From Actinomycetota bacterium (GTDB lineage: Bacteria > Actinomycetota > Thermoleophilia > Gaiellales > Gaiellaceae), in NCBI GenBank assembly GCA_046733295.1, contig JBKPOY010000038.1:4951-68950 (forward strand): a DNA stretch of 64,000 nucleotides, read 5' to 3'. Shown one piece after another: positions 5,398-24,661 of this stretch (positions are counted from its first letter, which is position 1; every line of letters begins with the position of its first letter). The notes beneath the pieces are model-generated. The model was not told the DNA's origin. It did no database searches and was given only the letters and a program-made list of their open reading frames with translations. The position numbers were made by a program, and so were the translations under genes.

Positions 5398-6522
5398 GTG
5401 GCCCGTTTCGACGCGATCGTGGTCGGCGCCGGGCCCGCCGGCTCGTCGACCGCCTACCGCCTCGCGCGCGCGGGCGCGCGCGTGTGCATGGTCGACCGGG
5501 CGCCGTTCCCGCGGGACAAGCCCTGCGGCGGCGGACTGACGCTGCGGGCGGTGCGCCAGCTCCCGTTCCCGGTCGACCCGGTCGTCGAAGACCGCGTCAC
5601 CACCCTCGAGCTCGGGTACCGCTACCGCAGGAGCTTTCAGAGGAAAGCAGACGGGCCCTGGGTGGTGATGACGCAGCGGCGCCGGCTCGACGCCTACCTC
5701 GCCGAGCGAGCGGCGGACGCCGGAGCCGAGTTCCGCGACGGCGTCAGGGTGACGGAGGTGCGTCCCGACGGGACGGTCCTCGTGGGAGCCGAGCGCCTCG
5801 AGGCCGACGTCGTCGTCGGGGCCGACGGCGCCAACGGCGTCGCCGGCCGGGCACTCGGGCCACCGGGGCACACGCTTGGCGTCGCGCTAGAGGGCAATGT
5901 CGGGTACGAGCACGTCCCGGCCGAGCGGTTCCGCGGCTGCGCCGTGGTCGAGCTCGGGGTCGTCTCCGGCGGCTACGCGTGGGTCTTTCCGAAGGGCGAC
6001 CACGTGAACGTGGGCGTCGGCGGCTGGGACTCCGAGGGGCCGCGGTTGCGCGAGCGGCTCCGCGAGCTCTGTGCGGCGTATGGGGTGGACCACGCGCACG
6101 TCCGCAAGCTGCGCGGGCATCGGCTGCCGATGCGCGGGGCGACCTGCCCGCCCGTGCGCGATCGTCTGCTCTTGGTCGGCGACGCCGCCGGCCTCGTCGA
6201 TCCGCTGTCGGGTGACGGGATGTACGAGGCCTTCGTCAGCGGCCGCCTCGCCGCCGCCGCGGCGGTCGATTTTCTCCAGGGCCGCACGGCCGATCTGGAC
6301 GGCTACGCGAGCGTCTTCGCGACCACGTTCTCGCCGCTCGAATCGGTCTCGTGGCGGGCGAAGGTTGCGTTCGACCGCTTCCCCCGTATCGCGTACTGGC
6401 TGGCGCGGACGCCCACCTCGTGGCGCCTGTTCGAATCCGTGGTCAGCGGCGAACGGACGGCCTCCGACGCGCGCGGCCTGGGCGCCGCACCCTTGCGAGT
6501 GCTCAAAGCGCTCGGCGCCTAA
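5398..6522 (+). CDS. geranylgeranyl reductase family FAD-dependent oxidoreductase
   Basis: GTG start. Rossmann motif DAIVVGAGPAGSSTAYRLARAG, then DKPCGGGLT typical of this family. Confidence 0.8.
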   Translation: MARFDAIVVGAGPAGSSTAYRLARAGARVCMVDRAPFPRDKPCGGGLTLRAVRQLPFPVDPVVEDRVTTLELGYRYRRSFQRKADGPWVVMTQRRRLDAYLAERAADAGAEFRDGVRVTEVRPDGTVLVGAERLEADVVVGADGANGVAGRALGPPGHTLGVALEGNVGYEHVPAERFRGCAVVELGVVSGGYAWVFPKGDHVNVGVGGWDSEGPRLRERLRELCAAYGVDHAHVRKLRGHRLPMRGATCPPVRDRLLLVGDAAGLVDPLSGDGMYEAFVSGRLAAAAAVDFLQGRTADLDGYASVFATTFSPLESVSWRAKVAFDRFPRIAYWLARTPTSWRLFESVVSGERTASDARGLGAAPLRVLKALGA

Positions 6523-6547
6523 AGGCGCTGCGGCTGCCTGCCGATGA
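6520..6547 (+). promoter_or_regulatory. sigma-28-like promoter box upstream of pilT1
   Basis: TAAA-N16-GCCGATGA. In-frame GTG at 6556 lies 8 nt after the box. The ORF-track ATG 6544 sits inside the box. Confidence 0.5.
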
Positions 6548-7734
6548 GCAGGCTCGTGGAGCTGAATGCGGTCCTTCGGCGTGCCGTGGAGCAGGGCGCG
6601 AGCGACGTCCACCTCAAGGTGGGCCAGATCCCGGTCATGCGCCGGGACGGCGACCTGACCGCGTTCGACGACCATCCGCCGCTGACGGATGCCGATCTCG
6701 AGTCGGTCCTCGCGATCATCTCCGAGCTGACGCCTGCTAAGCGCGAATCCTTCTACGACACGGGCGAGCTCGACATCGCGTATACGAACGGCGACCTGCC
6801 CCGGTTCCGCGTCAACGCGTTCCGCCAGCGGGGGTCGATCTCGTTCGCCTTCCGCGTGATCCCGAAGCGCGTCCCGAGCTTCGAGGACCTGCGCCTCCCC
6901 GAGGGCGTGCGGCAGATGGCGGAGGAGCATCGGGGCCTCGTGCTCGTCACGGGCGCCACCGGCTCGGGGAAGACGACGACGCTCGCCGCGATCATCGACC
7001 ACATCAATAAGTCCCGGCGGCAGCACATCGTCACCGTCGAGGACCCGATCGAGATTCTCCACGACGACCACAACTGCATCGTCAACCAGCGCGAGGTGGG
7101 CATCGACACGCAGGACTTCCTGCAGGCCCTGCGCCGCGCGTTACGGCAGGACCCCGACGTGATCCTGATCGGCGAGCTGCGCGACGCCGAGACCGCCGAG
7201 ACCGCGCTGAAGGCGGCGGAGTCGGGCCACCTCGTCTTCTCGACCATGCACACGATCGACGCGGCCGAGACGCTCGGCCGGATGATCGAGTTCTTCCCGG
7301 GGATCAAGCAGGCGCAGATCCGCTCGATCCTCGCCGGGGTCCTGCGGGGCGTCGTCAGCCAGCGGCTGCTGCCGCGCGTCGACGGGGGCCGGGTGGCGGC
7401 CGTCGAGGTCATGGTCAACAACGCGCGCATCTCCGACCTGATCCGCGAGAACAAGACGGAGGAGATTCCCGACGCAATCGGCGAGGGGTCGTTCTTCAAG
7501 ATGCAGACCTTCGAGCAGGCGCTGATCGCGCTCGTCCTGACCGGCGACATCGACCGCGAGGTCGCCGGCGCCGCCGCGACGAATCAGCATGACTTCATGG
7601 TCGCGCTCGAGCAGGCCCTGAAGCGGCAGGCGGCTGGGATCAGCAAGGAGGACGAGCGCATGAATCCCACGCCCCCGGCCGCCCGGCCGGAGGAAGCGGA
7701 GCCTCTGCCGAACCTCCGCGTCGTCCCGGAGTGA
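6544..7734 (+). CDS. pilT: type IV pilus retraction ATPase PilT paralog 1, with ~50-aa C-terminal tail
   Basis: ASDVHLKVG, Walker A GATGSGKTTT, DPIE, TGHLVFSTMHT. True start possibly GTG 6556. Confidence 0.9.
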   Translation: MSRLVELNAVLRRAVEQGASDVHLKVGQIPVMRRDGDLTAFDDHPPLTDADLESVLAIISELTPAKRESFYDTGELDIAYTNGDLPRFRVNAFRQRGSISFAFRVIPKRVPSFEDLRLPEGVRQMAEEHRGLVLVTGATGSGKTTTLAAIIDHINKSRRQHIVTVEDPIEILHDDHNCIVNQREVGIDTQDFLQALRRALRQDPDVILIGELRDAETAETALKAAESGHLVFSTMHTIDAAETLGRMIEFFPGIKQAQIRSILAGVLRGVVSQRLLPRVDGGRVAAVEVMVNNARISDLIRENKTEEIPDAIGEGSFFKMQTFEQALIALVLTGDIDREVAGAAATNQHDFMVALEQALKRQAAGISKEDERMNPTPPAARPEEAEPLPNLRVVPE

Positions 7735-9161
7735 TGAAGCGCGTACTGCTCGGACTGGCGCTCGCCATCGTCAGCGTCGCCTCGACGGCGAGCGCGGACA
7801 CCTTCCGCATGCTCCCTTCCGCACCGTCGAATCTGCCGAGCTCGACGATCCCCAACCAGCCCGGTCAGATCAGCGTGCCGACGCCGATCTCGCAGGCGCC
7901 GGCGCGACCGCAGTCGCTGACCTTCCTGCAGCTGACCTCGCTCTGGCAGCAGGCGGGGCAGGGCTACGGGATCCCCTGGCAGGTGCTCGCGGCCATCAAC
8001 AAGGTGGAGTCGAACTTCGGCCGCAACATGGGCCCCAGCTCCGCCGGCGCGGTCGGCTGGATGCAGTTCATGCCCTCGACCTGGGACCGCTGGGGGATGG
8101 ACGCCGACGCCGACGGCATCGCCGATCCGTGGAACGCGACCGACGCGATCTACTCCGCGGCGCGCTACCTCGCCGCCGCCGGGGGGCGCGCGGACATCGC
8201 CCGGGCCGTGCTCGCCTACAACCACGCGCAGTGGTACGTCGACGAGGTGCTGCAGCTCTCGAAAACCTTCGGCGACGGCGGTGTCGACACGACCTTCCAG
8301 CTCGACCGGCTCCAGGTCTCACTCGATGGAGCGCGGAAGGAAGTAGCGCGCGCGAACCGGAAGCTCGTCGCGGCGACGAAGACAGAGCGCGGACTTGCTC
8401 GCGCCGAGCGCCGTGCCCTGCGGCGGGTCGGAAGCGTCTCGCTGCTCTCGCGCCAGCTGGAGCTCCAGAAGGCGGCCACGCTCGTCGGCGTCAGGCACCA
8501 CGCTGCCGCACAGCGCGTCGACCAGCTCCGAAAGGAGCTCGCCGACGCCGAGTCGGCGCTGCAGGATGCGGCCACGCAGGTCGCCTCGGCTCCGGCGGCG
8601 TCGAGCGCGGGGGCGATGTTCGACGCGCCGACGGCCCAGTCTGGCTACGTCTTTCCAGTCGGCGGCGGCCCGTCGGTCGTCTCGGTCGCACACACCCATC
8701 ACGACTATCCGGCGGCCGACATCGCCGCACCCGATGGCTCGCCTGTCTACGCGCTGGCCGACGCGGTCGTCCAGCGGGCGTGGAGCCAACCGGACGCGCG
8801 CTGCGGCATCGGCCTGACCGTCGAGACCGCGGACAACGTCTCCTGGACGTACTGCCACCTCTCGTACCTCGAGCCAGCCGTGGAGGCAGGGGCCGTGCTC
8901 TCCGCCGGCGCACCAGTAGGCCTCGTCGGGCACACCGGGCATGCAACCGGTCCGCACCTGCACTTGCAGCTGAGCCCGCCCACGGAGTACCCGCAAAGCC
9001 AGGCGTGGTTCCAGCAGTTCGCCGGTGTCGCCTTCCGCTGGCAGGACGCCGTCACGCCCGAGCCTCAGGCCGCAACCGGTCACGGCACGGTCTTCGCAGA
9101 GGTCCCGAGCGGGTCGCAGCCGGCGTCCGGCTCGGGCGGCGTGATCCGGTTCACCCGTTAG
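7731..9161 (+). CDS. secreted bifunctional murein hydrolase: lytic transglycosylase (SLT-like) + coiled coil + M23 peptidase
   Basis: Signal peptide. AAINKVESNFG...GWMQFMPSTW (SLT-type). C-terminal HTHHDYPAADI...GHTGHATGPHLHLQ (M23). Start overlaps pilT1 stop (GTGATG). Confidence 0.85.
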   Translation: MMKRVLLGLALAIVSVASTASADTFRMLPSAPSNLPSSTIPNQPGQISVPTPISQAPARPQSLTFLQLTSLWQQAGQGYGIPWQVLAAINKVESNFGRNMGPSSAGAVGWMQFMPSTWDRWGMDADADGIADPWNATDAIYSAARYLAAAGGRADIARAVLAYNHAQWYVDEVLQLSKTFGDGGVDTTFQLDRLQVSLDGARKEVARANRKLVAATKTERGLARAERRALRRVGSVSLLSRQLELQKAATLVGVRHHAAAQRVDQLRKELADAESALQDAATQVASAPAASSAGAMFDAPTAQSGYVFPVGGGPSVVSVAHTHHDYPAADIAAPDGSPVYALADAVVQRAWSQPDARCGIGLTVETADNVSWTYCHLSYLEPAVEAGAVLSAGAPVGLVGHTGHATGPHLHLQLSPPTEYPQSQAWFQQFAGVAFRWQDAVTPEPQAATGHGTVFAEVPSGSQPASGSGGVIRFTR

Positions 9162-9200
9162 GGGGAAGGCGCGGGGCCGCACGGTGCCGACTACGCGTGT

Positions 9201-10121
9201 ATGGCGGTCCGTCTTGGCGCGCTCTTGCCACGCGTCCTCGTGGTTTCTGTGGTCTGGATCCTCGCATCCGGAACGCTGACGTTCGCCGCCGAAAGGCAGC
9301 TTTACGCCCATGTCGAGGCGAAGGCGCCGGCGCCCACGGCGAAGCCGACCCTCGTGGTCCCCGACATCAGGTCGCAGGCGTTCGTCTTCGCCAAGGGAAT
9401 CCTCGAAGACGGCGGCTTCGCCTGGCACGTCGTCGGCGGGGTGCACGGCTACGCGACCAACCTCGTGGCTTCGCAGATGCCCGCTGCCGGCACTCGGATC
9501 GAGGACACGGGCGCGCCGACGATCACGCTGCGGCTCTCGCGCGGCCACTACCCCGAGACCGGGACACCGCAGGACACTGCTCCCTACGTCGGAACGGCGA
9601 CGCGGCTCGCAGGTGCGATCAACGCGCCGACGAAGAAGCGCGCCGCGGGCAAGGCCCCGCTGGCGCCGCCGAAGATCGCCTCGGCCAAGAAGGCGGCGCC
9701 TGCCGCGCGGAAGCACCTCGCGCGGGCGGCCGCGAAGCCGGTCAAGCGGGCGAAGCCGCTCCAGCCCGCGAGGCCGGCCAAGCCGGCGAAGCGAGCTGTG
9801 CACAAGACGAGGCCCGCCGCCTTCCACGTTCCCGGGGCGCCGAAGGAGCCGTCGAACGAGATTTCCCTCCCCGCCCGCGCCGAGCGTCTCAGCGCGTGGC
9901 TGACGCCGTCGCGTCCTCCCACCGCCGCGAACCAGCGGCACTGGCTCTACCAGCACGCCTGGATCGTCACCGGCGCCCGGTTCGGCTGGTGGCACGGCGC
10001 CGCTGCCCTCCGCGTCCTCATCCGCGTCGACCACCGCGTCCGGTCCCAGTGGGGGATCGGCTCTCGCAGTGAAAAGGTCGCGCGCCGAGCCCTCGCCGCC
10101 ATCGAGGCGAGGGCCAAGTGA
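9201..10121 (+). CDS. membrane-anchored protein with one PASTA-like domain, Lys/Ala/Pro-rich linker and an unknown C-terminal domain
   Basis: N-terminal TM helix. VVPDIRSQAFVFAKGILEDGGF...VASQMPAAGTRIEDTGAPTITLRLSRG resembles a PASTA fold signature. AKKAAPAARK-type repeats. Confidence 0.5.
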   Translation: MAVRLGALLPRVLVVSVVWILASGTLTFAAERQLYAHVEAKAPAPTAKPTLVVPDIRSQAFVFAKGILEDGGFAWHVVGGVHGYATNLVASQMPAAGTRIEDTGAPTITLRLSRGHYPETGTPQDTAPYVGTATRLAGAINAPTKKRAAGKAPLAPPKIASAKKAAPAARKHLARAAAKPVKRAKPLQPARPAKPAKRAVHKTRPAAFHVPGAPKEPSNEISLPARAERLSAWLTPSRPPTAANQRHWLYQHAWIVTGARFGWWHGAAALRVLIRVDHRVRSQWGIGSRSEKVARRALAAIEARAK

Positions 10122-10720
10122 GGAAGCTGCGAGCGCTTCGAGCGCGGCTCGCACGCGAGGAGCGTGGCTACACCCTCGTCGAGCTGCTGACGGTGATCGT
10201 GATCCTCGGGGTCGTCATGGAAGGTCTCACCACCGTCTTCGTGACCGCCTCGCGCGCCGAGGTCAACATGAACAACCGCTTCCAGGCCCAGCAGACCGCC
10301 CGCGTGGCGCTGGACAAGGTCCGTCGCGAGGTGCATTGCGCCTCGGACGCGGGCTCGACCACGGCGAACACGCAGGTCTCGCTCGTGACGCTGACCCTGC
10401 CGACGTACTGCAAGACGTACTCCGGCAGCTCGGTCGTGACGTGGTGCACGAAGAACCTCTCGACCAACCGCTACGCCCTGTACCGGATCAACGCGAACAG
10501 CGCGACGTGCACGGGCGGCGTCAAGTGGGCGGACTACCTGATCCCCACCTCGACAGCGCCGGTCTGCAGCAGCGCCCTTTGCGCCTTCAGCTACCAGACG
10601 GCCACCGGCAGTCTCGCCCGGCTGCACGTGGACCTCGCGGTCAACGTGCGCCCCGCGAACACGACCGAGACCTACGAGCTGATCGACGACCTCGTGCTGA
10701 GGAATAGCAGCCGGCCATGA
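10118..10720 (+). CDS. minor pilin / pseudopilin (prepilin-type N-terminal methylation domain)
   Basis: EERG|YTLVELLTVIVILGVV class III signal. GTGA overlap with upstream gene. Confidence 0.8.
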   Translation: MRKLRALRARLAREERGYTLVELLTVIVILGVVMEGLTTVFVTASRAEVNMNNRFQAQQTARVALDKVRREVHCASDAGSTTANTQVSLVTLTLPTYCKTYSGSSVVTWCTKNLSTNRYALYRINANSATCTGGVKWADYLIPTSTAPVCSSALCAFSYQTATGSLARLHVDLAVNVRPANTTETYELIDDLVLRNSSRP

Positions 10721-12465
10721 AGGGCATCGTCTCGGCACTTCGGAAGCGCCTGGCCGCCGACGAGCGAGGCTTCGCCCTCGTGCTCGCGCTCGGCGTGCTG
10801 ACGGTGCTCGCCATCATGATCGTGACGATCATCCAGTACACGAGCACGAACCAGCGGACCGCCTATTTCAGCAGGGCGAAGGTGACGGCGTTCGATGCCG
10901 CCGACGCCGGCATGAACAACGCCCTCTCCGTGCTGAACAACCCGACCCAGAATGCGCTCGACCCCGACGTCCTGCCGGCGTGCACCGGTGCGCAGTCGGG
11001 GTGGAAGCACAGCTACTACGACAACGCGACCGCCGACTGGTGCGGCACGCTCGACCGTGCGGCGGCGACCTGGTCGCTGAAAGCGGTTGGCTATCTCAAG
11101 AACCCCACGGGCCCGAACGCCGGCAATGTCAGCAGGACGCTGACGGCGAAGGTCACGGTTCAGCCGACGTTGACCCAGCCGCTGAACAACCCCGTCTGGA
11201 ACTACCTGTACGCCGGCCACACCGGCAGCACCTGCGACCAGACGCTGAACAACAACATCACGGGCGCCTCCCGGATGTACATCGCCGGCAATCTCTGTCT
11301 GAGCCCGAACGTGCAGCTTGCGCAGTCGATGGTGATCGTGGGCGGCAACCTCGACGTCTCGAACAACGCCGCCGTCGGCGCGAGCACGAACATGAGCACG
11401 CGCGTCGAGACGTACGTCGGCAACAACTGCCGCTACGGCAGCAGCAGCCCGCCGTGGGTCACCTGCACGGGGAACCAGGACGCGAACCACATCTACAGCA
11501 AGCTCTCCGACGGAACCACGCTCGCCGTCAGCCACAATCCGCCGGTCGTCCCTCCTCCGACCGCGGACTTCGCAACGTGGTACGAGAACGCCATTCCCGG
11601 GCCCTCCCAGTCGTGCACGACCTCCAGCGGGACCGTTCCGACCTTCGACAACAACTACCCCAGCCGCGACAACAGCGTCGCGTCGGTGTTCGACCTCACC
11701 CCGTCGAGCTCGTACACGTGCCGCGTCGGGCGCGGCGCGGCGACGACCGTCTCGTCGGCGGTCAACGCCTCGCAGACCACGCTCTCCATCGCCTCGGCGA
11801 CCGGCTTCCCGACCACCGGCACCTATCGGATCCGGGTCGACGACGAGCAGATGACGGTGACCGGCGGGCAAGGAACGACGACGTGGACGGTGACGCGCGG
11901 CGTCAACGGCACGACGGCCACCACGCACGCCAGCGGCCAGACGGTCGCGCAGGACGACGCCGGCACGAGCGGCGAGATCTCCTGGAACGCGACGACGAAG
12001 AACCTCACGCTGGTCGGCACGATCTTCATCGACGGCAGCGCCAAGGTCTCGAACGGCGCCCTCAATACGTACAACGGCCAGGCGACCCTGTACCTGTCCG
12101 GCACCTTCTTCGGGAACGGCTCGCTCTGCGGCGCAGTCTCGGGATCGGCGTGCAACTTCGCCGGCTGGAACCCCAACACCGAGATGCTGACGATCGTCGC
12201 CAACGGGAACGGGGGTCAGGTCAACCCCGGCGACAGCATCCAGATCGCGAACAACTTCTCGTACCAGGGCGGCCTGTTCGCGACGAACAACGTCGAGCTC
12301 GGGAACAACGTGAACATCGACGGACCGATCGTCGGCAGCTCGATTGTCCTCAGCAACAACCTGGCGACGAACGCCTTCCCGACCGTGACGACGGTGCCGG
12401 TAGGGATGCCGTCGAACCCGGCCGTCTACGCTCAGCCGAATCCCCCGCAGAGCTTCTCCGGCTGA
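10717..12465 (+). CDS. large PilX-like minor pilin / tip-associated pseudopilin
   Basis: DERG|FALVLALGVLTVLAIMIV (PilX_N-like, no Glu5). 582 aa, Thr/Ser/Asn/Gly-rich beta-type C-terminus. ATGA overlap. Confidence 0.65.
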   Translation: MKGIVSALRKRLAADERGFALVLALGVLTVLAIMIVTIIQYTSTNQRTAYFSRAKVTAFDAADAGMNNALSVLNNPTQNALDPDVLPACTGAQSGWKHSYYDNATADWCGTLDRAAATWSLKAVGYLKNPTGPNAGNVSRTLTAKVTVQPTLTQPLNNPVWNYLYAGHTGSTCDQTLNNNITGASRMYIAGNLCLSPNVQLAQSMVIVGGNLDVSNNAAVGASTNMSTRVETYVGNNCRYGSSSPPWVTCTGNQDANHIYSKLSDGTTLAVSHNPPVVPPPTADFATWYENAIPGPSQSCTTSSGTVPTFDNNYPSRDNSVASVFDLTPSSSYTCRVGRGAATTVSSAVNASQTTLSIASATGFPTTGTYRIRVDDEQMTVTGGQGTTTWTVTRGVNGTTATTHASGQTVAQDDAGTSGEISWNATTKNLTLVGTIFIDGSAKVSNGALNTYNGQATLYLSGTFFGNGSLCGAVSGSACNFAGWNPNTEMLTIVANGNGGQVNPGDSIQIANNFSYQGGLFATNNVELGNNVNIDGPIVGSSIVLSNNLATNAFPTVTTVPVGMPSNPAVYAQPNPPQSFSG

Positions 12466-12466
12466 T

Positions 12467-12494
12467 TCAACTCGGCGCAGCCCGGCGCCGATAG
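12467..12494 (+). promoter_or_regulatory. sigma-28-like promoter box upstream of pilD
   Basis: TCAA-N16-GCCGATAG, with 7 nt to GTG 12502. Confidence 0.45.
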
Positions 12495-12501
12495 GAGGAT
12501 C

Positions 12502-13254
12502 GTGAACGCTGCGCTCGCCGCCTTCGCCTTTGCCCCTGGGCTCGCCGTGGGAAGCTTCCTGAACGTCGTCGCCGCCCGGCTGCCGCTGCGGCAATCCGTC
12601 ATCAGGCCCCGCTCGGCATGCATGCGCTGCGGCAACGAGCTCGCGTGGTTCGACAACGTGCCGCTGGTCTCGTACCTCGCCCTCCGTGGGCGCTGCCGCT
12701 CCTGCGGCGTGCGAATCGGGCTCCTCTACCCGGCCGTGGAGCTGGCCACCGCGGTCCTGGTGGCGGCGTGCGTGTTGAAGTTCGGTCTCACCGCGCAGGC
12801 GCTCGTGGCCGCGTTCTTCTGCGCCGTGCTCGTCGCGGTGACCGCGACCGACATCACGCACCGGATCGTCCCGAACCGGATCGTCGTCCCGGCCGCCGGC
12901 ATCGTGCTCGTCGCCCAGACGGCGATCGAGCCGAGCCCCCAGTGGCTGATCGGCGCGCTCGGGGCCTCGCTCTTCCTCTTCGTCGCGGCGCTGGCGTACC
13001 CGGCCGGCATGGGGATGGGGGACGTGAAGCTCGCCCTGCTGATGGGCGCGGCGCTCGGCAAGACGGTTCCCGTGGCGATGCTGAGCGGGATGATCTTCGC
13101 GCTGCTGCCGAGCCTCCTCCTGCTTGCCCGGCACGGCTCGGCGGCGCGCAAGATGGCGATTCCCTTCGCGCCCTTCCTAGCGCTGGGCAGCGTTCTGGCG
13201 CTGTTCGCCGGCCCGTGGCTGCTGCACGGCTACTGGGCGCTCTTCACGGCCTAG
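12502..13254 (+). CDS. pilD: prepilin peptidase / N-methyltransferase (A24 family)
   Basis: CMRCGNEL...CRSCG zinc motif, multiple TM segments, GMGMGDVKL active-site Asp region. Confidence 0.9.
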   Translation: MNAALAAFAFAPGLAVGSFLNVVAARLPLRQSVIRPRSACMRCGNELAWFDNVPLVSYLALRGRCRSCGVRIGLLYPAVELATAVLVAACVLKFGLTAQALVAAFFCAVLVAVTATDITHRIVPNRIVVPAAGIVLVAQTAIEPSPQWLIGALGASLFLFVAALAYPAGMGMGDVKLALLMGAALGKTVPVAMLSGMIFALLPSLLLLARHGSAARKMAIPFAPFLALGSVLALFAGPWLLHGYWALFTA

Positions 13255-13269
13255 AACCCCCGAAAAACC

Positions 13270-13297
13270 TCAGGTTTCCGGCCGCTGGCGCCGATAC
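13270..13297 (+). promoter_or_regulatory. sigma-28-like promoter box upstream of pilB
   Basis: TCAG-N16-GCCGATAC, with 21 nt to GTG 13319 and GAGGGA SD in between. Confidence 0.4.
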
Positions 13298-16746: not shown

Positions 16747-16775
16747 CCCCAAGATGGGGGAGACGTTGAGGCAAG

Positions 16776-16802
16776 AAAAAGGGCGCGGTCTCCCGCGCCC
16801 TT
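16776..16802 (-). terminator. rho-independent terminator of pilin copy 2
   Basis: Same stem as at 16245 (AAGGGCGCGG/CCGCGCCCTT), then a T5 run on the minus strand. Confidence 0.8.
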
Positions 16803-16826
16803 TCGAGAAGCAAAGCCGTTTCTGCC

Positions 16827-17265: not shown

Positions 17266-17294
17266 TTATCGGTCGCGACGAGTCCCCCCGGATA
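17266..17294 (-). promoter_or_regulatory. sigma-28-like promoter box upstream of pilin copy 2
   Basis: Minus strand reads TATC-N17-ACCGATAA. 43-nt spacer to the ATG with an AAGGAGG SD. Confidence 0.45.
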
Positions 17295-17345
17295 CCCCCG
17301 GAATGGGGGAGATCGAGCCGACGCGAACGCACTGCTTTCGCGGGG

Positions 17346-17373
17346 TTAAGAAACGCCCGAGCGCTGCCGATAG
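17346..17373 (+). promoter_or_regulatory. sigma-28-like promoter box upstream of pilT2
   Basis: TTAA-N16 (or TAAG-N15)-GCCGATAG, with 9 nt to GTG 17383 and 12 nt to ATG 17386. Confidence 0.55.
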
Positions 17374-17382
17374 CTCGCTCGA

Positions 17383-18543
17383 GTGATGCCGGAGACGCCT
17401 CTCTCAATCGACGCTCTGCTCGAGCGCATGGTCGCGCTTGGCGCGTCCGACCTTCACATCACGGTCGGCTCGCCACCGGTCGCGCGCGTGAACGGAGCGC
17501 TCCAGCCCCTCGAGGGGCTGGAGCCGCTCGCGCCCGATCAGACGCACCAGATCCTCTACCGGATCCTCTCGACCGAGCAGCAGAAGCAGCTGGAGATCAA
17601 GCGTCAAATCGACATGGCGCACTCGATTCCCGGCCTCGCTCGCTTTCGCGTCAACGTCTACTTCCAGCGCGAGACGCTCGGCGCCGCCTTCCGGCTGATC
17701 CCGGCCGAGATCAAGACGCTCGAGGAGCTCGGGATTCCGACGAGCCTGCACGGCCTCACGGAGAGGCCGCGCGGCCTCGTGCTCGTGACCGGCCCGACCG
17801 GCTCGGGCAAGTCGACCACGCTGGCGGCCCTGATCGACGAGATCAACCGCAAGCGCCCCGAGCACATCCTCACGATCGAGGACCCGGTCGAGTTCGTTCA
17901 CCGCCACAAGAAGTGCATCGTCAACCAGCGCGAGATCGGCCCCGACACGCCGACGTTCGCGGAGGGCCTCCGGGCTGCGCTGCGCCAGGACCCCGACGTG
18001 ATCCTCCTCGGCGAGATGCGCGACCTCGAGACGATCGGGACGGCGATCACGGCCGCCGAGACGGGGCACCTCGTCTTCGCAACCCTGCACACGCAGAGCG
18101 CGCCGAGCACCGTCGACCGGATCATCGACGCGTTCCCGGGAGCGCAGCAGGAACAGATCCGCGTGCAGCTCGCTGCGACGCTTGAAGGGATCGTCACCCA
18201 GGCCCTGCTTCGCACGGCCGACGGAACGGGCCGCGTCGCAGCCCTCGAGATCCTTTATCCGGACGACGCCGTCCGGAACCTCATCCGCCAGGGCAAGGTC
18301 GAGCAGATCTACTCGGTCATGCAAACCGGGACCGGCAAGGGCATGCAGACGATGGAGCAGGCGCTTGCAGACCTGACGCTGCGGCGCATCATCACGCTCG
18401 AGACCGCCCTCAGCCGCTCCAGCAAGCCCGAGCAGCTGTTCGGGTTGCTCGAGCGGGCCGGCTTCGATGTCGGCGACGCCGCTGCGGGGCTCACGGTGGA
18501 GCCGCCGCCGCTCGCCGGAGCACTAAGGGTCGCGGGGAGCTAG
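17383..18543 (+). CDS. pilT: type IV pilus retraction ATPase PilT paralog 2
   Basis: GASDLHITVGSPP, Walker A GPTGSGKSTT, EDPVEF, TGHLVFATLHT. Confidence 0.93.
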   Translation: MMPETPLSIDALLERMVALGASDLHITVGSPPVARVNGALQPLEGLEPLAPDQTHQILYRILSTEQQKQLEIKRQIDMAHSIPGLARFRVNVYFQRETLGAAFRLIPAEIKTLEELGIPTSLHGLTERPRGLVLVTGPTGSGKSTTLAALIDEINRKRPEHILTIEDPVEFVHRHKKCIVNQREIGPDTPTFAEGLRAALRQDPDVILLGEMRDLETIGTAITAAETGHLVFATLHTQSAPSTVDRIIDAFPGAQQEQIRVQLAATLEGIVTQALLRTADGTGRVAALEILYPDDAVRNLIRQGKVEQIYSVMQTGTGKGMQTMEQALADLTLRRIITLETALSRSSKPEQLFGLLERAGFDVGDAAAGLTVEPPPLAGALRVAGS

Positions 18544-18545
18544 CG

Positions 18546-19940
18546 GTGGTCGACTGGAACAAGGAAGTCAAGCTCTCGGACGTCTTCGGGCGCAAGGACA
18601 AGTCCGAATCGGCCGGCGAGCAGGCACCCGAAGCGCCCGCCGAACCCGTCGAGACGCCCTCCCCGGCCGAGCCGAAGGCGCCCTTTTGGAAGCGCGAGAT
18701 CTCGCTCGGCGGCGGCAAGCCGAAGGCGGAGCGAAAGGCGAAGGAGCCCAAGCAGAAGCAGCCGAAGGCGGAGGAGAAGAAGAAGAAGGACGGCACGCCG
18801 TTCTACAAGCGTGAGCTCTCCTTCGGGTCGAAGGGCTCCTCGTCGAAGAAGCAGCTCAAGAGCGGCGCGAGCGGCCGGACGAAGAAGCTCGTCGGGCTGA
18901 AGCTCGGCGGCTCGCAGCTCGCGGCCGCGCGCGTCAACAACAACGGCGTGCCGGAGCTCGTGCAGCTCGCGCGGACGGATCTCGAGCCCGGGATCATCGT
19001 CGGCGGCGAGCTCCGCGATCCGGACCTGCTCGCCGAGTCGTTGAAGGAATTCTTCAGGGCGCACAAGCTGCCGCGCCAAGGTGTGCGGCTCGGCATTGCG
19101 AACAACCGGATCGGCGTCCGGATCTTCGACATCGCGGGGATCGAGGACGCCAATCAGCTCGAGAACGCAATCCGATTCCGCGCGCAGGAGGCACTGCCGA
19201 TCCCGATCGAGGAGGCGGTGCTCGACTACCACGTCCTCGACGAGCGGACGGACGAGGAAGGCCAGCCGCTGCGCCGCGTTCTGCTCGTCGTCGCGTACCG
19301 CGACCTCGTCGACCGCTACATCTCGGCCTGCAAGAAGGCCGGCATCAAGCTCGCGGGGATCGATCTCGAGGCCTTCGCGCTGCTGCGCGCGCTTGCGGAG
19401 CCGCCGGAGTTCGACGCGCCGCCCTCGAACGCGGCGCTCGTCGTGGTCTCGATCGGGCACGAGCGTTCGACCTTCGCCGTTTCAGACGGCCGGGTCTGCG
19501 AGTTCACCCGCGTGCTCGACTGGGGCGGCGCGACGCTGAACGTTGCGGTCGCGCGGGCCCTGGAGCTCGCTCCCTCGGAGGCGGAGCCTTTCAAGCGCAT
19601 GCTTTCGCTCTCGCACGACGACACGCCCGAGGGGCTGACGCAGGAACAGGCGGCCGCGGCTCGGGAGGCGCTTCGCAAGCAGCTCCAAGCGTTCGCGCGC
19701 GAGCTCGTCTCCTCGCTTCAGTTCTACCAGAACCAACCGGGGTCTCTCGGCATTGGCGAGATCGTGATCACAGGCGGTACCGCGCACCTGCACGGGCTCG
19801 CCGAGGAGCTCCACAAGCTGATCGGCGTTCGAGTGCGCGTCGGCGACCCGCTGGCCCGCGTCAAGCTCGGCAAGCGTGTCGGCGAGGCCGAGCAGGTCGG
19901 CTCGCTGGCCGTGGCGATCGGCCTGGGGATCGAGGACTAG
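18546..19940 (+). CDS. pilM: PilM (actin-like pilus assembly protein) with ~115-aa Lys-rich N-terminal extension
   Basis: GTG start 3 nt after pilT2. Core [18 protein letters not shown]...ITGGTAHLHGLAEEL. Confidence 0.88.
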   Translation: MVDWNKEVKLSDVFGRKDKSESAGEQAPEAPAEPVETPSPAEPKAPFWKREISLGGGKPKAERKAKEPKQKQPKAEEKKKKDGTPFYKRELSFGSKGSSSKKQLKSGASGRTKKLVGLKLGGSQLAAARVNNNGVPELVQLARTDLEPGIIVGGELRDPDLLAESLKEFFRAHKLPRQGVRLGIANNRIGVRIFDIAGIEDANQLENAIRFRAQEALPIPIEEAVLDYHVLDERTDEEGQPLRRVLLVVAYRDLVDRYISACKKAGIKLAGIDLEAFALLRALAEPPEFDAPPSNAALVVVSIGHERSTFAVSDGRVCEFTRVLDWGGATLNVAVARALELAPSEAEPFKRMLSLSHDDTPEGLTQEQAAAAREALRKQLQAFARELVSSLQFYQNQPGSLGIGEIVITGGTAHLHGLAEELHKLIGVRVRVGDPLARVKLGKRVGEAEQVGSLAVAIGLGIED

Positions 19941-20624
19941 ATGCGTGCGATCAACCTTCTGCCGAGGGACGACAAGCGCCGTTCCGGGGGGCCGAAGCCG
20001 CCGAACGCGGTGATCCTGACCGCCGTCATCGGCACGGTCGTCGTCACGGCCCTTCTGTGCGGCCTCTTCCTGGTGGCGCACGGCAAGGTCACGCACAAAC
20101 AGGCCGAGCTCGAAGGGCTGCAGCACGAGCTGACGGCGATTCCGAAGCCGGCTCAGGACCAGGTCGCCCGCTCCGACGCGCTCGTCGCCGACAAGCAGGG
20201 CCGGATCACGGCTTTGAACGCGGCGCTCGCCCGGCGCGTCGCCTGGGACCGTGTGCTGCGCGAGTTCGCGATGGTTCTTCCCGATGATGTCTGGCTGATC
20301 CGGCTGTCCGGCCAGCCGCCGACGCTGTCGACGTCGCTGACCGGCCCCGCGCCGGCGAGCTCGAGCAGCGCGACCGCGGCAGCCGCGGCGGCAGCGGGAA
20401 CGCAGGCGCCCCCGGGGGCGGCCACGGACACGTCCGTGATGTTCCAGGTCGAGGGCTACACGTACTCACACAGCGGTGTGGCGCGACTGCTCACCCGGAT
20501 GCAGGTGATCCCGGACTTCGAGCACGTGCAGTTGCTGACGAGCGAGGCCGGCGAGCGGGGCGGCCGCAAGGTCGTCCACTTCAAGGTCGGTGCCGACGTG
20601 CGCCAGCCGGGAGGCACGTCGTGA
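19941..20624 (+). CDS. pilN: PilN-like pilus assembly protein
   Basis: N-terminal MRAINLLPRD (INLLP PilM-binding motif), single TM helix, coiled coil. Confidence 0.8.
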   Translation: MRAINLLPRDDKRRSGGPKPPNAVILTAVIGTVVVTALLCGLFLVAHGKVTHKQAELEGLQHELTAIPKPAQDQVARSDALVADKQGRITALNAALARRVAWDRVLREFAMVLPDDVWLIRLSGQPPTLSTSLTGPAPASSSSATAAAAAAAGTQAPPGAATDTSVMFQVEGYTYSHSGVARLLTRMQVIPDFEHVQLLTSEAGERGGRKVVHFKVGADVRQPGGTS

Positions 20625-21319
20625 GGAAGAAGACGCCCCAGTCCGTCTGGATCGCCGCCGTCGTGGGCGGGCTTCTCCTCATGATCGTGCTCGGGTTCTT
20701 CGTGATCGTGTCGCCGCAGCGCGGCAAGGCGTCGGATCTGAAGGATCAGATCGCCGACGTCCAGCAGCAGATCGACGACGCCCATGCGCTCGTGGCAAAA
20801 GCCAAGAACGCGCAGAAGGTCAAGGTCGCGGATCTCTTCAAGCTGACGAAGGCGATGCCGGACAACCCCGACGAGGCCGGCGTCCTGCTCGACATCAACG
20901 ATGTCGCGCGCGTCAGCGGTGTCGAGTTCAACTCGATCAATGTCGACGCGTCCGTGACCCTCTCCACGTATCAGGTGATTCCGCTGCGGCTCGAGTTCGA
21001 CGGGAACTACTACGCGCTCACGGATTTCCTCTTCCGCCTGCGGAACCTCGTGGACGTCCACCGCGGCGCACTCGACGCCAGCGGTCGCCTCTTCGCCGTC
21101 GACAACCTCGCGCTCGACGAGAGCACGCGCCAGTTCCCGCGTATCCGCGCGCAGATCAAGATCGACGCGTTCGTCTACGGAACCGGGACTCCGGCTGACG
21201 TTGCGCCCGCGCAGAGCTCGACCGCGGCCACCGGTTCGGCCACCGCGGCGACACCGCCGCCCGCGGCGGCGCCGCCGGCGCCCAGCACCGGGGCAGCGGC
21301 CGCAGGAGGGACGCCGTAA
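20621..21319 (+). CDS. pilO: PilO-like pilus assembly protein
   Basis: TM helix + coiled coil + ferredoxin-like core (IPLRLEFDGNYYALTDFLFRLRNL). GTGA overlap with pilN. Confidence 0.75.
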   Translation: MRKKTPQSVWIAAVVGGLLLMIVLGFFVIVSPQRGKASDLKDQIADVQQQIDDAHALVAKAKNAQKVKVADLFKLTKAMPDNPDEAGVLLDINDVARVSGVEFNSINVDASVTLSTYQVIPLRLEFDGNYYALTDFLFRLRNLVDVHRGALDASGRLFAVDNLALDESTRQFPRIRAQIKIDAFVYGTGTPADVAPAQSSTAATGSATAATPPPAAAPPAPSTGAAAAGGTP

Positions 21320-22113
21320 TGGCCAAGAAGGTCGACCCGGTCAAGGCGAAGGCGGCGCGACAGAAGAAGATCGCGATCGTCGGCGGCGTGCTGCTGCTCG
21401 GCCTGTTGGCCTTCCAGCTGCCGCGGACGATGAAGCTGCTCAACAACCCCGGCAACGTGACGACGAGCGCCGCCACGACCACGAGCACCACGACGCCGGG
21501 CTCGACTCCGCTCGCGCCGCCGACGCTCGAGGGCGGCTCTGCCGCGACGTCGCCCTCGAGCCCGAGCGGATCCGGCGGCTCGTCCGTCGCGACCTCCGAC
21601 GACGGCGTTCAAGATCCGAGCAATCCGCTTCCGGCGAGCTCGGGCCAGCTGATCTCGTTCAATCGGTTCAAGAGCAAGGACCCGTTCAATCAGCAGATCA
21701 CCGACTGCGGCACGGGCGCGTGCGCCTCGAGCCCCGCCGGTGCGGGTTCGGGCGCGAGCACGGGGTCCGGCGCTGCGACCACTGCTTCCGGCGGCACGGG
21801 CGGCGGCACCGGCACCGCTACCGCCGGCGTGACACCGACGGGTGCGACGGCCGGAGCGGCCGCCAAGGTCACGAGCGCGACCGTCTCCGTGAACGGCAAG
21901 GTCGAGCGGGTGACGGTCGGCAAGAGCTTCCCCGCCGCCGACCCGGTCTTCGTCCTGCTGGCACTGACGGGCAAGCGAGCGATGATCGGCATCGCCGGCG
22001 GCTCGCTCGAGAGCGGCGCCGACGGCGTCGGGCTCGGGCTCGGCAAGACCCTGACGCTTCAGAACACCGCTGACGGCGCGAGCTACGTGCTCAGGCTCGT
22101 CCGTACGGCGTAG
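21319..22113 (+). CDS. bitopic membrane protein, possibly PilP-like
   Basis: TM helix, Ser/Thr/Gly-rich linker, FKSKDPF motif, C-terminal beta domain (VSVNGKVERVTVGKSF...). TAATG junction with pilO. Confidence 0.45.
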   Translation: MAKKVDPVKAKAARQKKIAIVGGVLLLGLLAFQLPRTMKLLNNPGNVTTSAATTTSTTTPGSTPLAPPTLEGGSAATSPSSPSGSGGSSVATSDDGVQDPSNPLPASSGQLISFNRFKSKDPFNQQITDCGTGACASSPAGAGSGASTGSGAATTASGGTGGGTGTATAGVTPTGATAGAAAKVTSATVSVNGKVERVTVGKSFPAADPVFVLLALTGKRAMIGIAGGSLESGADGVGLGLGKTLTLQNTADGASYVLRLVRTA

Positions 22114-22117: not shown

Positions 22118-22696
22118 TCACGCTTCCGTAACGGTGTCCGACACCGCGGGTGGGGCTGACGCCACGAATTCTTCGTAGCGCGCCCGCGCCTCCTCCGGCG
22201 CCCGGCCGAAGAATCGGAGGAGCTCGTTGACGGCGAGGAACGGCGGCACGAAAGACTTGCCCGTGCTGGCGCGGTAGCTGCTCCAGCGCCAACTCTCCGG
22301 CTTCTCGCAGAGGCCGGCTCGCACCGGGTTGAGGACGACGTAGCGCGACACCTCGAGCAGGTGCGGGTCGCGCTTCAGCCGGGTCGAGAAGAAGTGTTGC
22401 CTGAAGAGGTGGTCGCGCCGCCGGTATCGCTGGTTCGTTGCCCTTGAGTAGCCGCTCAGGAGCTCTTGCATGCCCGGCGAAAGACCGCCGTCTGGAGTGC
22501 GAAGGACGAGGTGGAAATGGTTGGACATGAGGCAGTACGCGAGGCAGAGCCAGTGATGTCGATGGACGACACGATCGAGCCGCCAGCAGAAGTGCCGGCG
22601 ATCCCGATCATCGAAGTAGATGTCCTGCCCGCCGTTGCCCCGAGCGGCCACGTGGTACAGCCCGCCGGGAAAGTCTTCGCGTGGGCGGCGCGCCAT
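22118..22696 (-). CDS. REP-associated tyrosine transposase (RayT; IS200/IS605-like Y1 HUH enzyme)
   Basis: LYHVAARGN, HUH motif SNHFHLVLRT, GYSRATNQRY...LFRQHF, ESWRWSSY tail. REP copies lie on both sides. Confidence 0.85.
   Translation of the reverse strand: MARRPREDFPGGLYHVAARGNGGQDIYFDDRDRRHFCWRLDRVVHRHHWLCLAYCLMSNHFHLVLRTPDGGLSPGMQELLSGYSRATNQRYRRRDHLFRQHFFSTRLKRDPHLLEVSRYVVLNPVRAGLCEKPESWRWSSYRASTGKSFVPPFLAVNELLRFFGRAPEEARARYEEFVASAPPAVSDTVTEA
22126..22147 (+). repeat. REP family 1 copy, inside the last codons of rayT
   Basis: CCGTAACGGTGTCCGACACCGC. Confidence 0.65.
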
Positions 22697-22830: not shown

Positions 22831-23382
22831 TTACGTCGTCGGGCAGCCCGGGGCGTAGGGCAGCGCGGTCGAGCAGTCGAACGTGGTCGTCGAGCGCGCC
22901 AGAACCTTGCCCGGGTTCATCCCGTCGCGCACCACCACGGTGATCTTCCGCACGGTGCGGCTCGCGGCGACGGGGTGGTCGCTGAGGATGTAGGTGTCGA
23001 CCCGGTACTTGTGCCGGTCGGGCCCGACCACCGACCGGCTGGGGTTGCACTGCTGCGTGACCGTCGTGCACGTGCCCTGCACGAGCGCCGAGGTCGAGTT
23101 CGGGCACGCCCCGCCCAGGACGGAGTCGCACTTGTAGGTGGTGTCGACCGTCGCCAAGGATCCGCTGTCGAGTGAGAGCTGATCCCACGTCAGCGCTCGG
23201 TACAGCTCGATCTGCTGATCGGCGAGCACCGAGGCCGTGGCGGTCAGGCTCGAGCGCCTCAGGGTGACGACGCCGGAGTTGAACGCCGCCACGATCGCGA
23301 GGATCCCGATGTTCAGGACCACGATCGCGATCAGCAGCTCGATCAGCCCGAAGCCGCCTTCTTGCCGCAAGCGCGCACGCAC
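22831..23382 (-). CDS. PilV-like minor pilin (prepilin-type N-terminal domain)
   Basis: QEGG|FGLIELLIAIVVLNIGILAIVAAF. Cys-rich C-terminal domain. GTG start with no SD. Confidence 0.75.
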   Translation of the reverse strand: MRARLRQEGGFGLIELLIAIVVLNIGILAIVAAFNSGVVTLRRSSLTATASVLADQQIELYRALTWDQLSLDSGSLATVDTTYKCDSVLGGACPNSTSALVQGTCTTVTQQCNPSRSVVGPDRHKYRVDTYILSDHPVAASRTVRKITVVVRDGMNPGKVLARSTTTFDCSTALPYAPGCPTT

Positions 23383-23390
23383 GTGAAGGG

Positions 23391-23418
23391 GTATCGGCAG
23401 GACACGGGCGCCTCAAGA
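23391..23418 (-). promoter_or_regulatory. sigma-28-like promoter box upstream of the pilV-like gene
   Basis: Minus strand reads TCTT-N16-GCCGATAC, with 8 nt to GTG 23382. The -35 tetramer overlaps that of the divergent pilC box. Confidence 0.45.
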
Positions 23419-23440
23419 CCCCCCTTTCGCCTGCCGATAG
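23413..23440 (+). promoter_or_regulatory. sigma-28-like promoter box upstream of pilC
   Basis: TCAA-N16-GCCGATAG, with 9 nt to ATG 23450. TTG 23444 is only 3 nt away. Confidence 0.5.
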
Positions 23441-23443
23441 GCC

Positions 23444-24661
23444 TTGTACATGGCGGCCTTTGCTTACAGCGCCATCAATGCGCAGGGGATGGAGCTCGCC
23501 GGCGAGATCCATGCCCCCGATCCCGAAGCGGCGCGCGAGCAGCTGCGTGTCCGCGGGCTGCTCGCGGAGCGCCTCGACGAGCTGCCCGCGAGCGGCGAGG
23601 AGGGCGTCCGCACCGTCTTCAAGAAGATCAAGCCGAAAACCCTCCAGATCTTCTCCCGCCAGTTCGCGACGATGATCGAGGCGGGATTGAACGTCGTCGG
23701 CTCGCTGGTCATCCTCGAGCAGCAGACCGAGGATCCCTACTTCGCCTCCGTTGTGCGCGAGCTCCGCGCCGACGTCGAGGGCGGCCTCCTCCTCTCGCAG
23801 GCGATGGCGCGTCACCCGAAGATCTTCGACCGCCTCTACGTCTCGATGGTCGAGGCGGGCGAGGCGGCCGGAATCCTGGACGTCGTCCTCGACCGCGTCG
23901 CCTACCAGATCGAGAAGGCGACCCAGCTGAAGCGCCGGGTCAAGGGCGCGATGATGTACCCGACGATGGTCTTGCTCTTCGCGACCCTCGTCCTCATCGG
24001 CCTGCTGATGTTCCTCGTGCCGGTCTTCGTGCGGATCTTCGCGACGCTGAACGGGGAGCTGCCGACGCTGACCCAATACGTCGTCAACGTCTCGAACCTG
24101 CTCCGCAACGACTGGTACATCATCTTCCCGTCCGTGATCGCCCTGTTCTTCGGGATCAGGCGCTTCAAGAAGACGGAGCAGGGCCGGCAGCTGTGGGACC
24201 GGATCAAGCTGAAGATCCCAATGAAGATCGGCGACGTCGTCCTGAAGGTGACGATGGCGCGCTTCTCGCGAACGCTTTCGACCCTCGTCGCCGCTGGCGT
24301 CGACATCATCAAGTCGCTGGAGATCACCGGCCAGACGGCCGGTAACTGGGTGATCGAAAGCGCCCTAGCCGACCTCCGGGCCAAGGTGCACCAGGGCGTC
24401 CCGATCGCGCAGCCCCTGATCGAGAACGACATCTTCCCCCCGATGGTCAGCCAAATGGTCAAGATCGGCGAGGAGACCGGTGAGCTCGAGAAGATGCTCT
24501 CCAAGATCGCGGACTTCTACGAGGACGAGGTCGACGCCGCCATCCAGACGCTCACCTCGATCATCGAGCCGCTGATGATGATCCTGGTCGGAATGATGGT
24601 CGGCGTCATCGTCATCTCGATGTATCTGCCGATGTTCAAGATGCTCAGCCTCGTCAAGTAG
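23444..24661 (+). CDS. pilC: type IV pilus platform protein PilC (GspF family)
   Basis: Two T2SSF repeats and three TM regions. ...FSRQFATMIEAGL... and ...FSRTLSTLVAAGV.... Likely true start ATG 23450 (MAAFAYSAI). Confidence 0.92.
   Translation: MYMAAFAYSAINAQGMELAGEIHAPDPEAAREQLRVRGLLAERLDELPASGEEGVRTVFKKIKPKTLQIFSRQFATMIEAGLNVVGSLVILEQQTEDPYFASVVRELRADVEGGLLLSQAMARHPKIFDRLYVSMVEAGEAAGILDVVLDRVAYQIEKATQLKRRVKGAMMYPTMVLLFATLVLIGLLMFLVPVFVRIFATLNGELPTLTQYVVNVSNLLRNDWYIIFPSVIALFFGIRRFKKTEQGRQLWDRIKLKIPMKIGDVVLKVTMARFSRTLSTLVAAGVDIIKSLEITGQTAGNWVIESALADLRAKVHQGVPIAQPLIENDIFPPMVSQMVKIGEETGELEKMLSKIADFYEDEVDAAIQTLTSIIEPLMMILVGMMVGVIVISMYLPMFKMLSLVK

Follow-up and report, generated by a model that had tools for sequence, protein, structure and literature searches.

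Candidate sigma-28-class promoters across the type IV pilus locus of a Gaiellaceae bacterium

The type IV pilus locus in a 64-kb stretch of DNA from a Gaiellaceae bacterium (contig JBKPOY010000038.1; the whole stretch is called the window here) contains nine boxes of the form GCCGATA(G/C), or close variants of it, each facing a pilus gene and most of them preceded at a fixed distance by a second element. The boxes cluster between the genes of the locus, recur at orthologous positions in related genomes, stand at constrained distances from several start codons and precede separate transcription units. We consider it likely, from this sequence pattern, that they are sigma-28-class (FliA/SigD/WhiG) promoters through which one alternative sigma factor controls nearly the whole pilus locus. 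The identity of that sigma factor, the points at which transcription starts and any input from cyclic di-GMP (c-di-GMP) and RsiG we infer by analogy with Rubrobacter.

The Gaiellaceae belong to the class Thermoleophilia of the phylum Actinomycetota, and the Gaiellales are among the most abundant soil actinobacterial lineages and almost uncultured. Pfam confirmed the gene identities in the locus (T2SSE, MshEN, T2SSF, Peptidase_A24, PilM_2, PilN, PilO and N_methyl), which has the full character of a type IV pilus cluster: PilB/PilT ATPases, the PilC platform, PilD, PilM/N/O and pilins with the N-terminal methylation motif.

Nine boxes in the pilus locus and their conservation

A preliminary description of this DNA had proposed that nine pilus transcription units share a sigma-28-type box, and a re-reading of the sequence found all nine, in coding orientation and with the tetramers and spacings described. 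In site order the upstream tetramers are TAAA, TCAA, TCAG, TAAA, TAGT, TATC, TTAA, TCTT and TCAA, each 16 nucleotides (nt) upstream of its box (17 nt at pilA2). The candidate promoters are listed below; hyp denotes a gene for a hypothetical protein, bits are scores in the weight matrix described below, the gap is the distance from the -10 octamer to the start codon, and SD is the Shine-Dalgarno sequence.

6520–6547, plus strand: pilT1 promoter; -35 TAAAG (6520–6524), -10 GCCGATGA (6540–6547); 23.6 bits; gap of 8 nt to GTG 6556
12467–12494, plus strand: pilD promoter; -35 TCAAC, -10 GCCGATAG (12487–12494); 17.5 bits; gap of 7 nt to GTG 12502
13270–13297, plus strand: pilB promoter; -35 TCAGG, -10 GCCGATAC (13290–13297); 17.9 bits; gap of 21 nt to GTG 13319
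16200–16227, minus strand: hyp promoter; -35 TAAAG, -10 GCCGATAG (16207–16200); 24.8 bits; gap of 7 nt to GTG 16192
16719–16746, minus strand: pilA1 promoter; TAGTG, without canonical -35, -10 GCCGATAC (16726–16719); 14.6 bits; gap of 45 nt with an SD inside
17266–17294, minus strand: pilA2 promoter candidate; 17-nt spacer, without canonical -35, -10 ACCGATAA (17273–17266); below 10 bits; gap of 43 nt with an SD inside
17346–17373, plus strand: promoter of pilT2-pilM-pilN-pilO-orf21319; -35 TTAAG, -10 GCCGATAG (17366–17373); 26.5 bits; gap of 9 nt to GTG 17383
23391–23418, minus strand: promoter of the pilV-like minor pilin gene; degenerate -35 TCTTG, -10 GCCGATAC (23398–23391); 16.3 bits; gap of 8 nt to GTG 23382
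23413–23440, plus strand: pilC promoter; -35 TCAAG, -10 GCCGATAG (23433–23440); 28.8 bits, the top match in the window; gap of 9 nt to ATG 23450

All nine boxes resemble the canonical GCCGATAA and share an invariant CGA core; seven contain GCCGATA, one is GCCGATGA and one ACCGATAA. The attribution of the whole set to the sigma-28 consensus stands, in both elements and in their spacing, for six sites (pilT1, pilD, pilB, hyp, pilT2 and pilC). It falls short upstream at the other three, where a sigma-28 -35 is degenerate (pilV) or absent (pilA1 and pilA2).

Over the window as a whole the excess of the heptamer is modest, with 10 exact copies of GCCGATA against 4.63 ± 2.1 expected from 100 dinucleotide-preserving shuffles of the 64-kb sequence. 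The composition guessed in the preliminary description (35% each of G and C, 15% each of A and T) was close to the measured GC content of 0.67–0.70, and its expectation of 5–7 copies was close to the shuffle mean. Its impression that the boxes crowd into intergenic DNA on the correct strand was borne out as well: the intergenic DNA from 6.5 to 23.5 kb, approximately 1216 nt in all, holds 7 of the 10 exact copies, all pointing at the downstream gene, and the Poisson probability of at least seven exact heptamers in that space is about 7e-12. The variants GCCGATGA (pilT1) and ACCGATAA (pilA2), with one mismatch each, are also intergenic there and in coding orientation. The other three copies (5104, plus strand; 35951 and 56488, minus strand) all score below the 10-bit threshold of the matrix.

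For comparison we used 80 related genomes, nearly all labelled Gaiellaceae, Gaiellales or unclassified Actinomycetota metagenome-assembled genomes (MAGs). The tetranucleotide profile of the window correlates with theirs at 0.994, its PilB is at most 84% identical to their proteins, and their pilus-flanking DNA totals 1.26 Mb. Orthologs of 17 genes of the locus were located by tblastn in the 80 loci, and the 110 nt upstream of each were inspected for the pattern [GA]CCGAT[AG], which has a background rate of 0.048 per 110 nt. The box precedes pilB in 75 of 76 cases, pilT2 in 46/46, hyp in 28/32, pilV in 31/37 and pilC in 28/33; it is found upstream of pilD in 41 of 66 cases, of pilA1 in 20/37, of pilA2 in 11/29 and of pilT1 in 11/40. 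Genes internal to the operons have no box (pilN, 0/44; the minor pilin gene at 10118, 0/56; orf21319, 0/36; pilM, 0/10) or, for the remaining internal genes of the pilT1 operon, have one only rarely.

When 273 unique sites from the relatives were aligned on the -10 box, positions outside the pattern used to select the sites could be read. Positions -20 to -16 from the box are T (90%), C or A, A (73%), A (73%) and G (78%), position -1 is T in 82% of the sites, and the spacer between the two elements is essentially free of information. The lineage consensus is T(C/A)AAG-N15-(T)GCCGATA(G/C), or T(C/A)AAG-N15-TGCCGATA(G/C) in the form suited to regulon searches, and it agrees in both elements and in their spacing with the published WhiG2 consensus T(A/C)AA-N16-GCCGATAA.

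A weight matrix scan, which the preliminary description had recommended, was run over the window and the relatives and found hits concentrated at pilus genes ahead of start codons. The matrix was built from the relatives only, with the window left out and a reporting threshold of 10 bits; the highest score in 20 Markov shuffles was 17.6 bits. It recovered eight of the nine window sites, at 14.6–28.8 bits, and missed pilA2, and in the 40 kb outside the pilus locus no position scored above 12 bits. Among the relatives, 286 of the 298 hits above 18 bits precede an open reading frame (ORF), nearly always an ortholog of the same pilus genes.

The same type of promoter was also seen 7 nt before the start codon of other genes, in L006, L025, L054 (a gene of about 670 amino acids (aa)) and L069 (a 381-aa gene). 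Judged by eye, the protein of about 670 aa, which is a polytopic membrane protein, and the 381-aa protein look like glycosyltransferases, and pilin glycosylation genes may thus belong to the regulon in some relatives.

Transcription units and the distance to the start codon

The genes served by the boxes are arranged as follows.

6556–12465, plus strand: pilT1 operon; PilT-like ATPase (6556–7734), SLT+M23 peptidoglycan hydrolase, orf9201, N_methyl minor pilin and PilX_N protein
12502–15115, plus strand: pilD, prepilin peptidase (12502–13254), and pilB, assembly ATPase (13319–15115)
15584–17222, minus strand: hyp (15584–16192), pilA1 (16290–16673) and pilA2 (16827–17222)
17383–22113, plus strand: operon of pilT2 (PilT-like ATPase, 17383–18543), pilM, pilN, pilO and orf21319
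22831–24661, divergent pair: pilV-like (22831–23382, minus strand) and pilC (23450–24661, plus strand)

An ORF for an IS200-like Y1 transposase (RAYT-like; 22118–22696, minus strand) lies between orf21319 and pilV-like, within the locus. The product of hyp is a membrane-anchored protein of 202 aa without a Pfam match, in which a Lys/Ala/Pro-rich linker joins a transmembrane helix at the N terminus to a conserved C-terminal domain. It is a pilus-associated component, and its gene's promoter ranks among the strongest and best conserved in the locus.

Direct reading of the sequence revealed an intrinsic terminator after each pilin gene: GGGCGCGG-GAAA-CCGCGCCC-TTTTTT after pilA1 (16266–16241, minus strand) and GGGCGCGG-GAGA-CCGCGCCC-TTTTT after pilA2 (16800–16776, minus strand). 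The two are nearly identical, the following promoter comes at once after each, and a consensus terminator scan missed both. Because a terminator follows each pilin gene, pilA2, pilA1 and hyp are separate transcription units. A consensus scan predicted no sigma-70-type promoter anywhere between 6 and 25.5 kb, and given the terminators, the promoters placed directly after them and this lack of sigma-70-type promoters in the locus, nine transcription units is a reasonable count. A search with Rfam found no riboswitches in the pilus locus.

The gaps of 7–9 nt between box and ATG or GTG that had been described earlier recur on re-measurement at pilT1, pilD, hyp, pilT2, pilV and pilC (8, 7, 7, 9, 8 and 9 nt), as do the SD-containing pilin spacers of 43–45 nt and the 21-nt spacer of pilB. 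Among the relatives, 24 of 31 pilD sites, 41 of 53 hyp sites and 25 of 26 pilV sites have a gap of exactly 7 nt. Of the 298 strong sites, 137 stand 7–9 nt ahead of a start codon; for random positions the share is 2.2%. At pilD, hyp, pilV and pilT2 the start codon used is the first possible one after an in-frame stop, which rules out a longer ORF with a leader for these four genes. This spacing leaves no room for an SD, and at the pilD, hyp and pilV orthologs it is fixed at 7 nt, the kind of constraint expected of leaderless messages; it supports the proposal that the mRNAs of these three genes would be leaderless. At pilT1 the ATG at 6544 that ORF finders select sits inside the -10 box GCCGATGA and is probably the wrong start, the in-frame GTG at 6556 being the likely true one.

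In the open-complex structure of the Pseudomonas aeruginosa fliC promoter the octamer occupies -15 to -8, which leaves 7 nt to +1, and at Escherichia coli aer transcription starts 6 bp downstream of the octamer. We suggest by extension that region 4 of a WhiG-like sigma factor would read T(C/A)AAG and its regions 2/3 (T)GCCGATA(G/C), 16 nt apart, and that transcription would begin about 8 nt after the octamer. The predicted +1 would then be the G of the GTG, its first base, at pilD and hyp and would lie 1–2 nt before the start codon at pilT1, pilV, pilT2 and pilC, and such leaderless or nearly leaderless units would need no SD. At pilB, +1 is predicted to fall on G 13305, where the SD GAGGGA begins, so that this gene would have a short leader of 14 nt opening with its SD. 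Directly after the pilB -10 box stands CCTC-ATTC-GAGGGA (13297–13311), which is kept in 51 of 76 relatives. As a speculation, a transcript from the pilB promoter would open with a free SD, and in read-through from pilD the SD could be masked in a CCUC/GAGG hairpin.

The two pilin genes would be transcribed with leaders of about 35 nt that contain an SD, from promoters with the same -10 box and no -35, and their transcripts are predicted to start close to a conserved GCCAC(C). Their upstream regions are rich in symmetry. The pilA1 spacer holds the 13-bp palindrome GTGGGT-C-ACCCAC, and an inverted repeat CCCC(C)-N5-GGGG(G) lies just upstream of both promoters (CCCCC-N5-GGGGG at pilA2). The GGGT/ACCC inverted repeats of the pilin promoters (window positions 16719–16770 and 17266–17320, minus strand) are conserved in the relatives, where the pilin orthologs show TCACCC-gTTCGa-GGGT and TtACCCAC-G-GTGGGTGA. 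This conserved symmetry suggests that an additional regulator is likely to act at the pilin palindromes, which probably serve as its binding sites.

The pilV-like gene and pilC are divergent, and their -35 elements, TCTTG (23418–23414) and TCAAG (23413–23417), occupy the same base pairs. The pilV element is the reverse complement of the perfect CTCAAG of pilC, reading TCTTG here and TTGAG in the relatives, and it is degenerate because the pilC -35 overlaps it. The two -10 boxes are 35 bp apart in the window and 37 bp apart in 18 relatives, and two holoenzymes probably cannot occupy both promoters at once.

Candidate sigma factor, rival explanations and known systems

The closest precedent for this arrangement comes from Rubrobacter. 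In R. radiotolerans a search for TAAA/GCCGATAA gave 20 matches of which 12 were confirmed by Cappable-seq, and three WhiG promoters in the pil cluster drive nine genes; in R. xylanophilus two such promoters drive 13 (Schumacher et al., 2021; PMC8325347). Rubrobacter type IV pili are controlled by a (RsiG)2-(c-di-GMP)2-WhiG switch, and a single-motif RsiG occurs together with WhiG in three Thermoleophilia, namely Thermoleophilum, Patulibacter and Conexibacter (PMC8325347). The existence of WhiG promoters in the Rubrobacter pil cluster whose transcription start sites (TSSs) have been mapped is a reason to favour sigma-28-class promoters as the explanation of the boxes in the window.

Several observations weigh against this explanation or limit it. 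A tblastn search of the window and of the relatives' loci (1.26 Mb) with E. coli FliA and Streptomyces venezuelae WhiG turned up no gene of the sigma-70 family, and none of the whiG-bearing contigs that were fetched is from Gaiellaceae, judging by GC content and by tetranucleotide correlations that do not exceed 0.91, where true relatives reach 0.974 or more. The RsiG motif E(X)3S(X)2R(X)3Q(X)3D was found in no ORF in a plausible frame in the window and in no six-frame translation of the 1.26 Mb. The sole GGDEF gene in the window, which encodes a GAF-GGDEF diguanylate cyclase (43494–44855, minus strand) between the rpoBC region and fusA, has no WhiG-type box (best upstream score, -2.6), a single gene being a weak test. 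The last position of the box is G or C, the canonical base being A. The pilin promoters and their orthologs place a GCCGAT(A/G) box 43–60 nt before the ATG and have no T(C/A)AAG, and the pilA2 box, the weakest of the nine, departs from the motif at a G that is conserved in 98% of the sites. Finally, the strict leaderless layout is not conserved at pilT1, pilT2 and pilC, because the spacing there varies among the relatives (5–16 nt).

The search for the sigma factor itself led to other lineages. The S. venezuelae WhiG query returned only Streptomyces homologs, another homolog search returned Rubrobacter-like, Conexibacteraceae and flagellar proteins, and a profile of Thermoleophilia-like hits retrieved mostly Solirubrobacteraceae proteins named WhiG by NCBI, with none assignable to Gaiellaceae; among 150 proteins from a search of representative proteins, none was close to Rubrobacter WhiG. 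Seven contigs with a FliA in a flagellar cluster or with a Rubrobacter-like whiG were rejected as Gaiellaceae on GC content and tetranucleotide correlation. One of the contigs examined, L102 (63% GC, Rubrobacter-like and not Gaiellaceae), carries comM-dprA-whiG-pilD-pilT-rpsB-tsf-pyrH at 7955–15506; whiG is physically linked to pilus genes there, since it adjoins pilD and pilT. On the Rubrobacter-like contigs L098–L101, whiG is directly upstream of rpsB-tsf-pyrH-frr. In Streptomyces, too, whiG lies between dprA and rpsB. None of comM, dprA, whiG, rpsB and tsf was found in the window or in the relatives' loci, and the Gaiella genome papers make no statement on sigma factors or pili. WhiG is widespread in the Solirubrobacteraceae, which belong to the same class as the Gaiellales, and because it is common in that class, WhiG is likely to be present in this Gaiellaceae lineage as well.

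That the searches traced no sigma-28 gene to Gaiellaceae leaves room for another alternative sigma factor, of group 3 or of the extracytoplasmic function (ECF) type and unrelated to FliA/WhiG, whose similar preference would let it read the boxes, and the G or C in place of AA at the end of the box and the conserved T at -1 could be taken the same way. We nevertheless regard such a factor as unlikely, given that both elements and the 16-nt spacing fit the published WhiG consensus and that WhiG is encoded in sister lineages of the same class and in Rubrobacteria; moreover, a GCCGATA -10 is not known to us from any other sigma family. It is very unlikely that the motif is instead the operator of a pilus-gene regulator, with transcription starting elsewhere. 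Its confinement to one functional locus and the additional operator-like palindromes of the pilin and pilB regions would suit an operator, but the motif lacks symmetry, consists of two parts held apart by a constant number of uninformative bases, and always points the same way as the gene. Furthermore, the 7–9 nt between it and the first possible start codon leave no space for another promoter downstream, and no sigma-70-type promoter is predicted nearby.

Actinobacteria commonly have leaderless sigma-A promoters, and the boxes might be housekeeping promoters with a TANNNT-like -10 embedded in GATA(G/C). This we consider highly improbable: at all nine sites the sixth position of a TANNNT that begins with the TA of the box is a base other than T, sigma-A does not require the conserved GCCG upstream of the TA, and a sigma-A transcript would begin 2–3 nt within the conserved start codon. 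A GC-rich heptamer in a GC-rich genome might be put down to chance, to compositional bias or to a dispersed repeat, the more so as 1 of the 100 shuffles reached 10 copies window-wide. Against this stand the concentration of the boxes in 1.2 kb of intergenic DNA in the correct orientation (with the probability given above), the unrelated spacers and flanks from site to site and the conservation of the sites at orthologous positions in 80 genomes, and an origin of this kind is effectively refuted.

With sigma-28-class promoters as the preferred explanation, the locus resembles that of Rubrobacter in that a high-GC, deep-branching actinobacterium has TAAA/GCCGATAA-type promoters inside its pilus cluster; the Rubrobacter sigma factor is of the flagellar clade, employed for pili. 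The two differ in density, with three TSS-validated promoters in Rubrobacter and nine candidates here, almost one per gene or short operon, and in the -35, which is T(C/A)AAG here. The word "leaderless" is absent from the account of Rubrobacter (PMC8325347), and leaderless placement is a proposal of the present analysis. Rubrobacter also has documented WhiG, RsiG and promoters of diguanylate cyclase and phosphodiesterase genes, whereas none of these was found in the window.

The preliminary description had stated that no such wiring was known in a high-GC monoderm, and this is contradicted by the Rubrobacter work (PMC8325347), by Actinoplanes and by published predictions (PMC12871210). FliA-family sigma factors transcribe the type IV pilus genes of the zoospores of Actinoplanes missouriensis (Kimura et al., 2019, as cited in PMC8325347 and PMC12871210). 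A. missouriensis bears flagella, forms sporangia and has four FliA paralogs and no RsiG, and the consensus given for its WhiG1 is CTCA-N16-17-GCCGAACT, while the Gaiellaceae -10 is the canonical GCCGATA. In the account of Denis et al. (2026; PMC12871210), type IV pilus genes are predicted WhiG targets in Cellulomonadaceae, Cryptosporangiaceae, Sanguibacteraceae, Rubrobacteraceae and Jonesiaceae. Our analysis shares the search logic of the WhiG regulons described there and their T(A/C)AA-N16-GCCGATAA consensus, and adds the Gaiellales lineage with phylogenetic footprinting over 80 genomes. Gaiellales are not mentioned in the main texts of PMC8325347 and PMC12871210, nor Thermoleophilia in the main text of the latter.

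The candidates also resemble the sigma-28 promoters of flagellar genes (consensus TAAAGTTT-N11-GCCGATAA in E. coli; -36 TCTAAAG -30 and -15 GCCGATAA -8 at P. aeruginosa fliC) in the two elements, in the G after TAAA and, for the predicted starts, in the 7-nt distance from the octamer to +1. They differ in a spacer one base longer (N16 rather than N15 from TAAA), in targets that are pilus genes and not flagellar or chemotaxis genes, and in predicted transcription starts that would coincide with start codons.

The wiring of actinobacterial type IV pili to WhiG/sigma-28 is thus already published, the Gaiellales case is not new in kind, and current understanding is not overturned. What the present case adds is the lineage and its phylogenetic footprint, a dense array of promoters, a fixed spacing suggestive of leaderless transcripts, a -35 that pilV and pilC share, and pilin promoters of an atypical kind. 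The analysis extends WhiG/sigma-28 control of pili, as a likely reading, to the Gaiellales on the basis of conservation over 80 genomes rather than a motif match in a single genome, and it lends support to the idea that this sigma factor has controlled pili since early in the history of the deep-branching Actinomycetota. We also obtain a clean, lineage-specific promoter model serviceable for regulon prediction in MAGs, and, with about one promoter per gene and a fixed 7-nt spacing, what may be a natural example of alternative-sigma promoters coupled to leaderless translation.

A more far-reaching picture, which we put forward as a tentative one and consider less likely than not, would join all of these features. 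An obligate sigma-28 regulon of many single-gene leaderless units would span the whole Gaiellaceae pilus machinery, including the prepilin peptidase, both retraction ATPases and the platform; a second regulator would act at the CCYC-N4-GRGG and GTGGGT-ACCCAC palindromes of pilB and the pilins; and pilV and pilC would compete for their shared -35. If this were true and the lineage lacked flagella and RsiG, a sigma-28 factor would have been fully re-dedicated to pili, under a logic unlike the c-di-GMP switch of Rubrobacter.

Other elements in the window

Near the start of the window, at 1237–3312 on the minus strand, lies a gene for an adenylate/guanylate cyclase-AAA_16 protein, at which no site reaches 10 bits. 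At 59015–59170 a GC-rich element some 35 nt long, GTGGGAGGTTCCCC(C/T)GGGGAGGA..GGCCACCT, occurs twice, together with the beginning of a third copy; it has no Rfam match, and the copies are about 85 and 45 nt apart and lie upstream of a plus-strand ORF.

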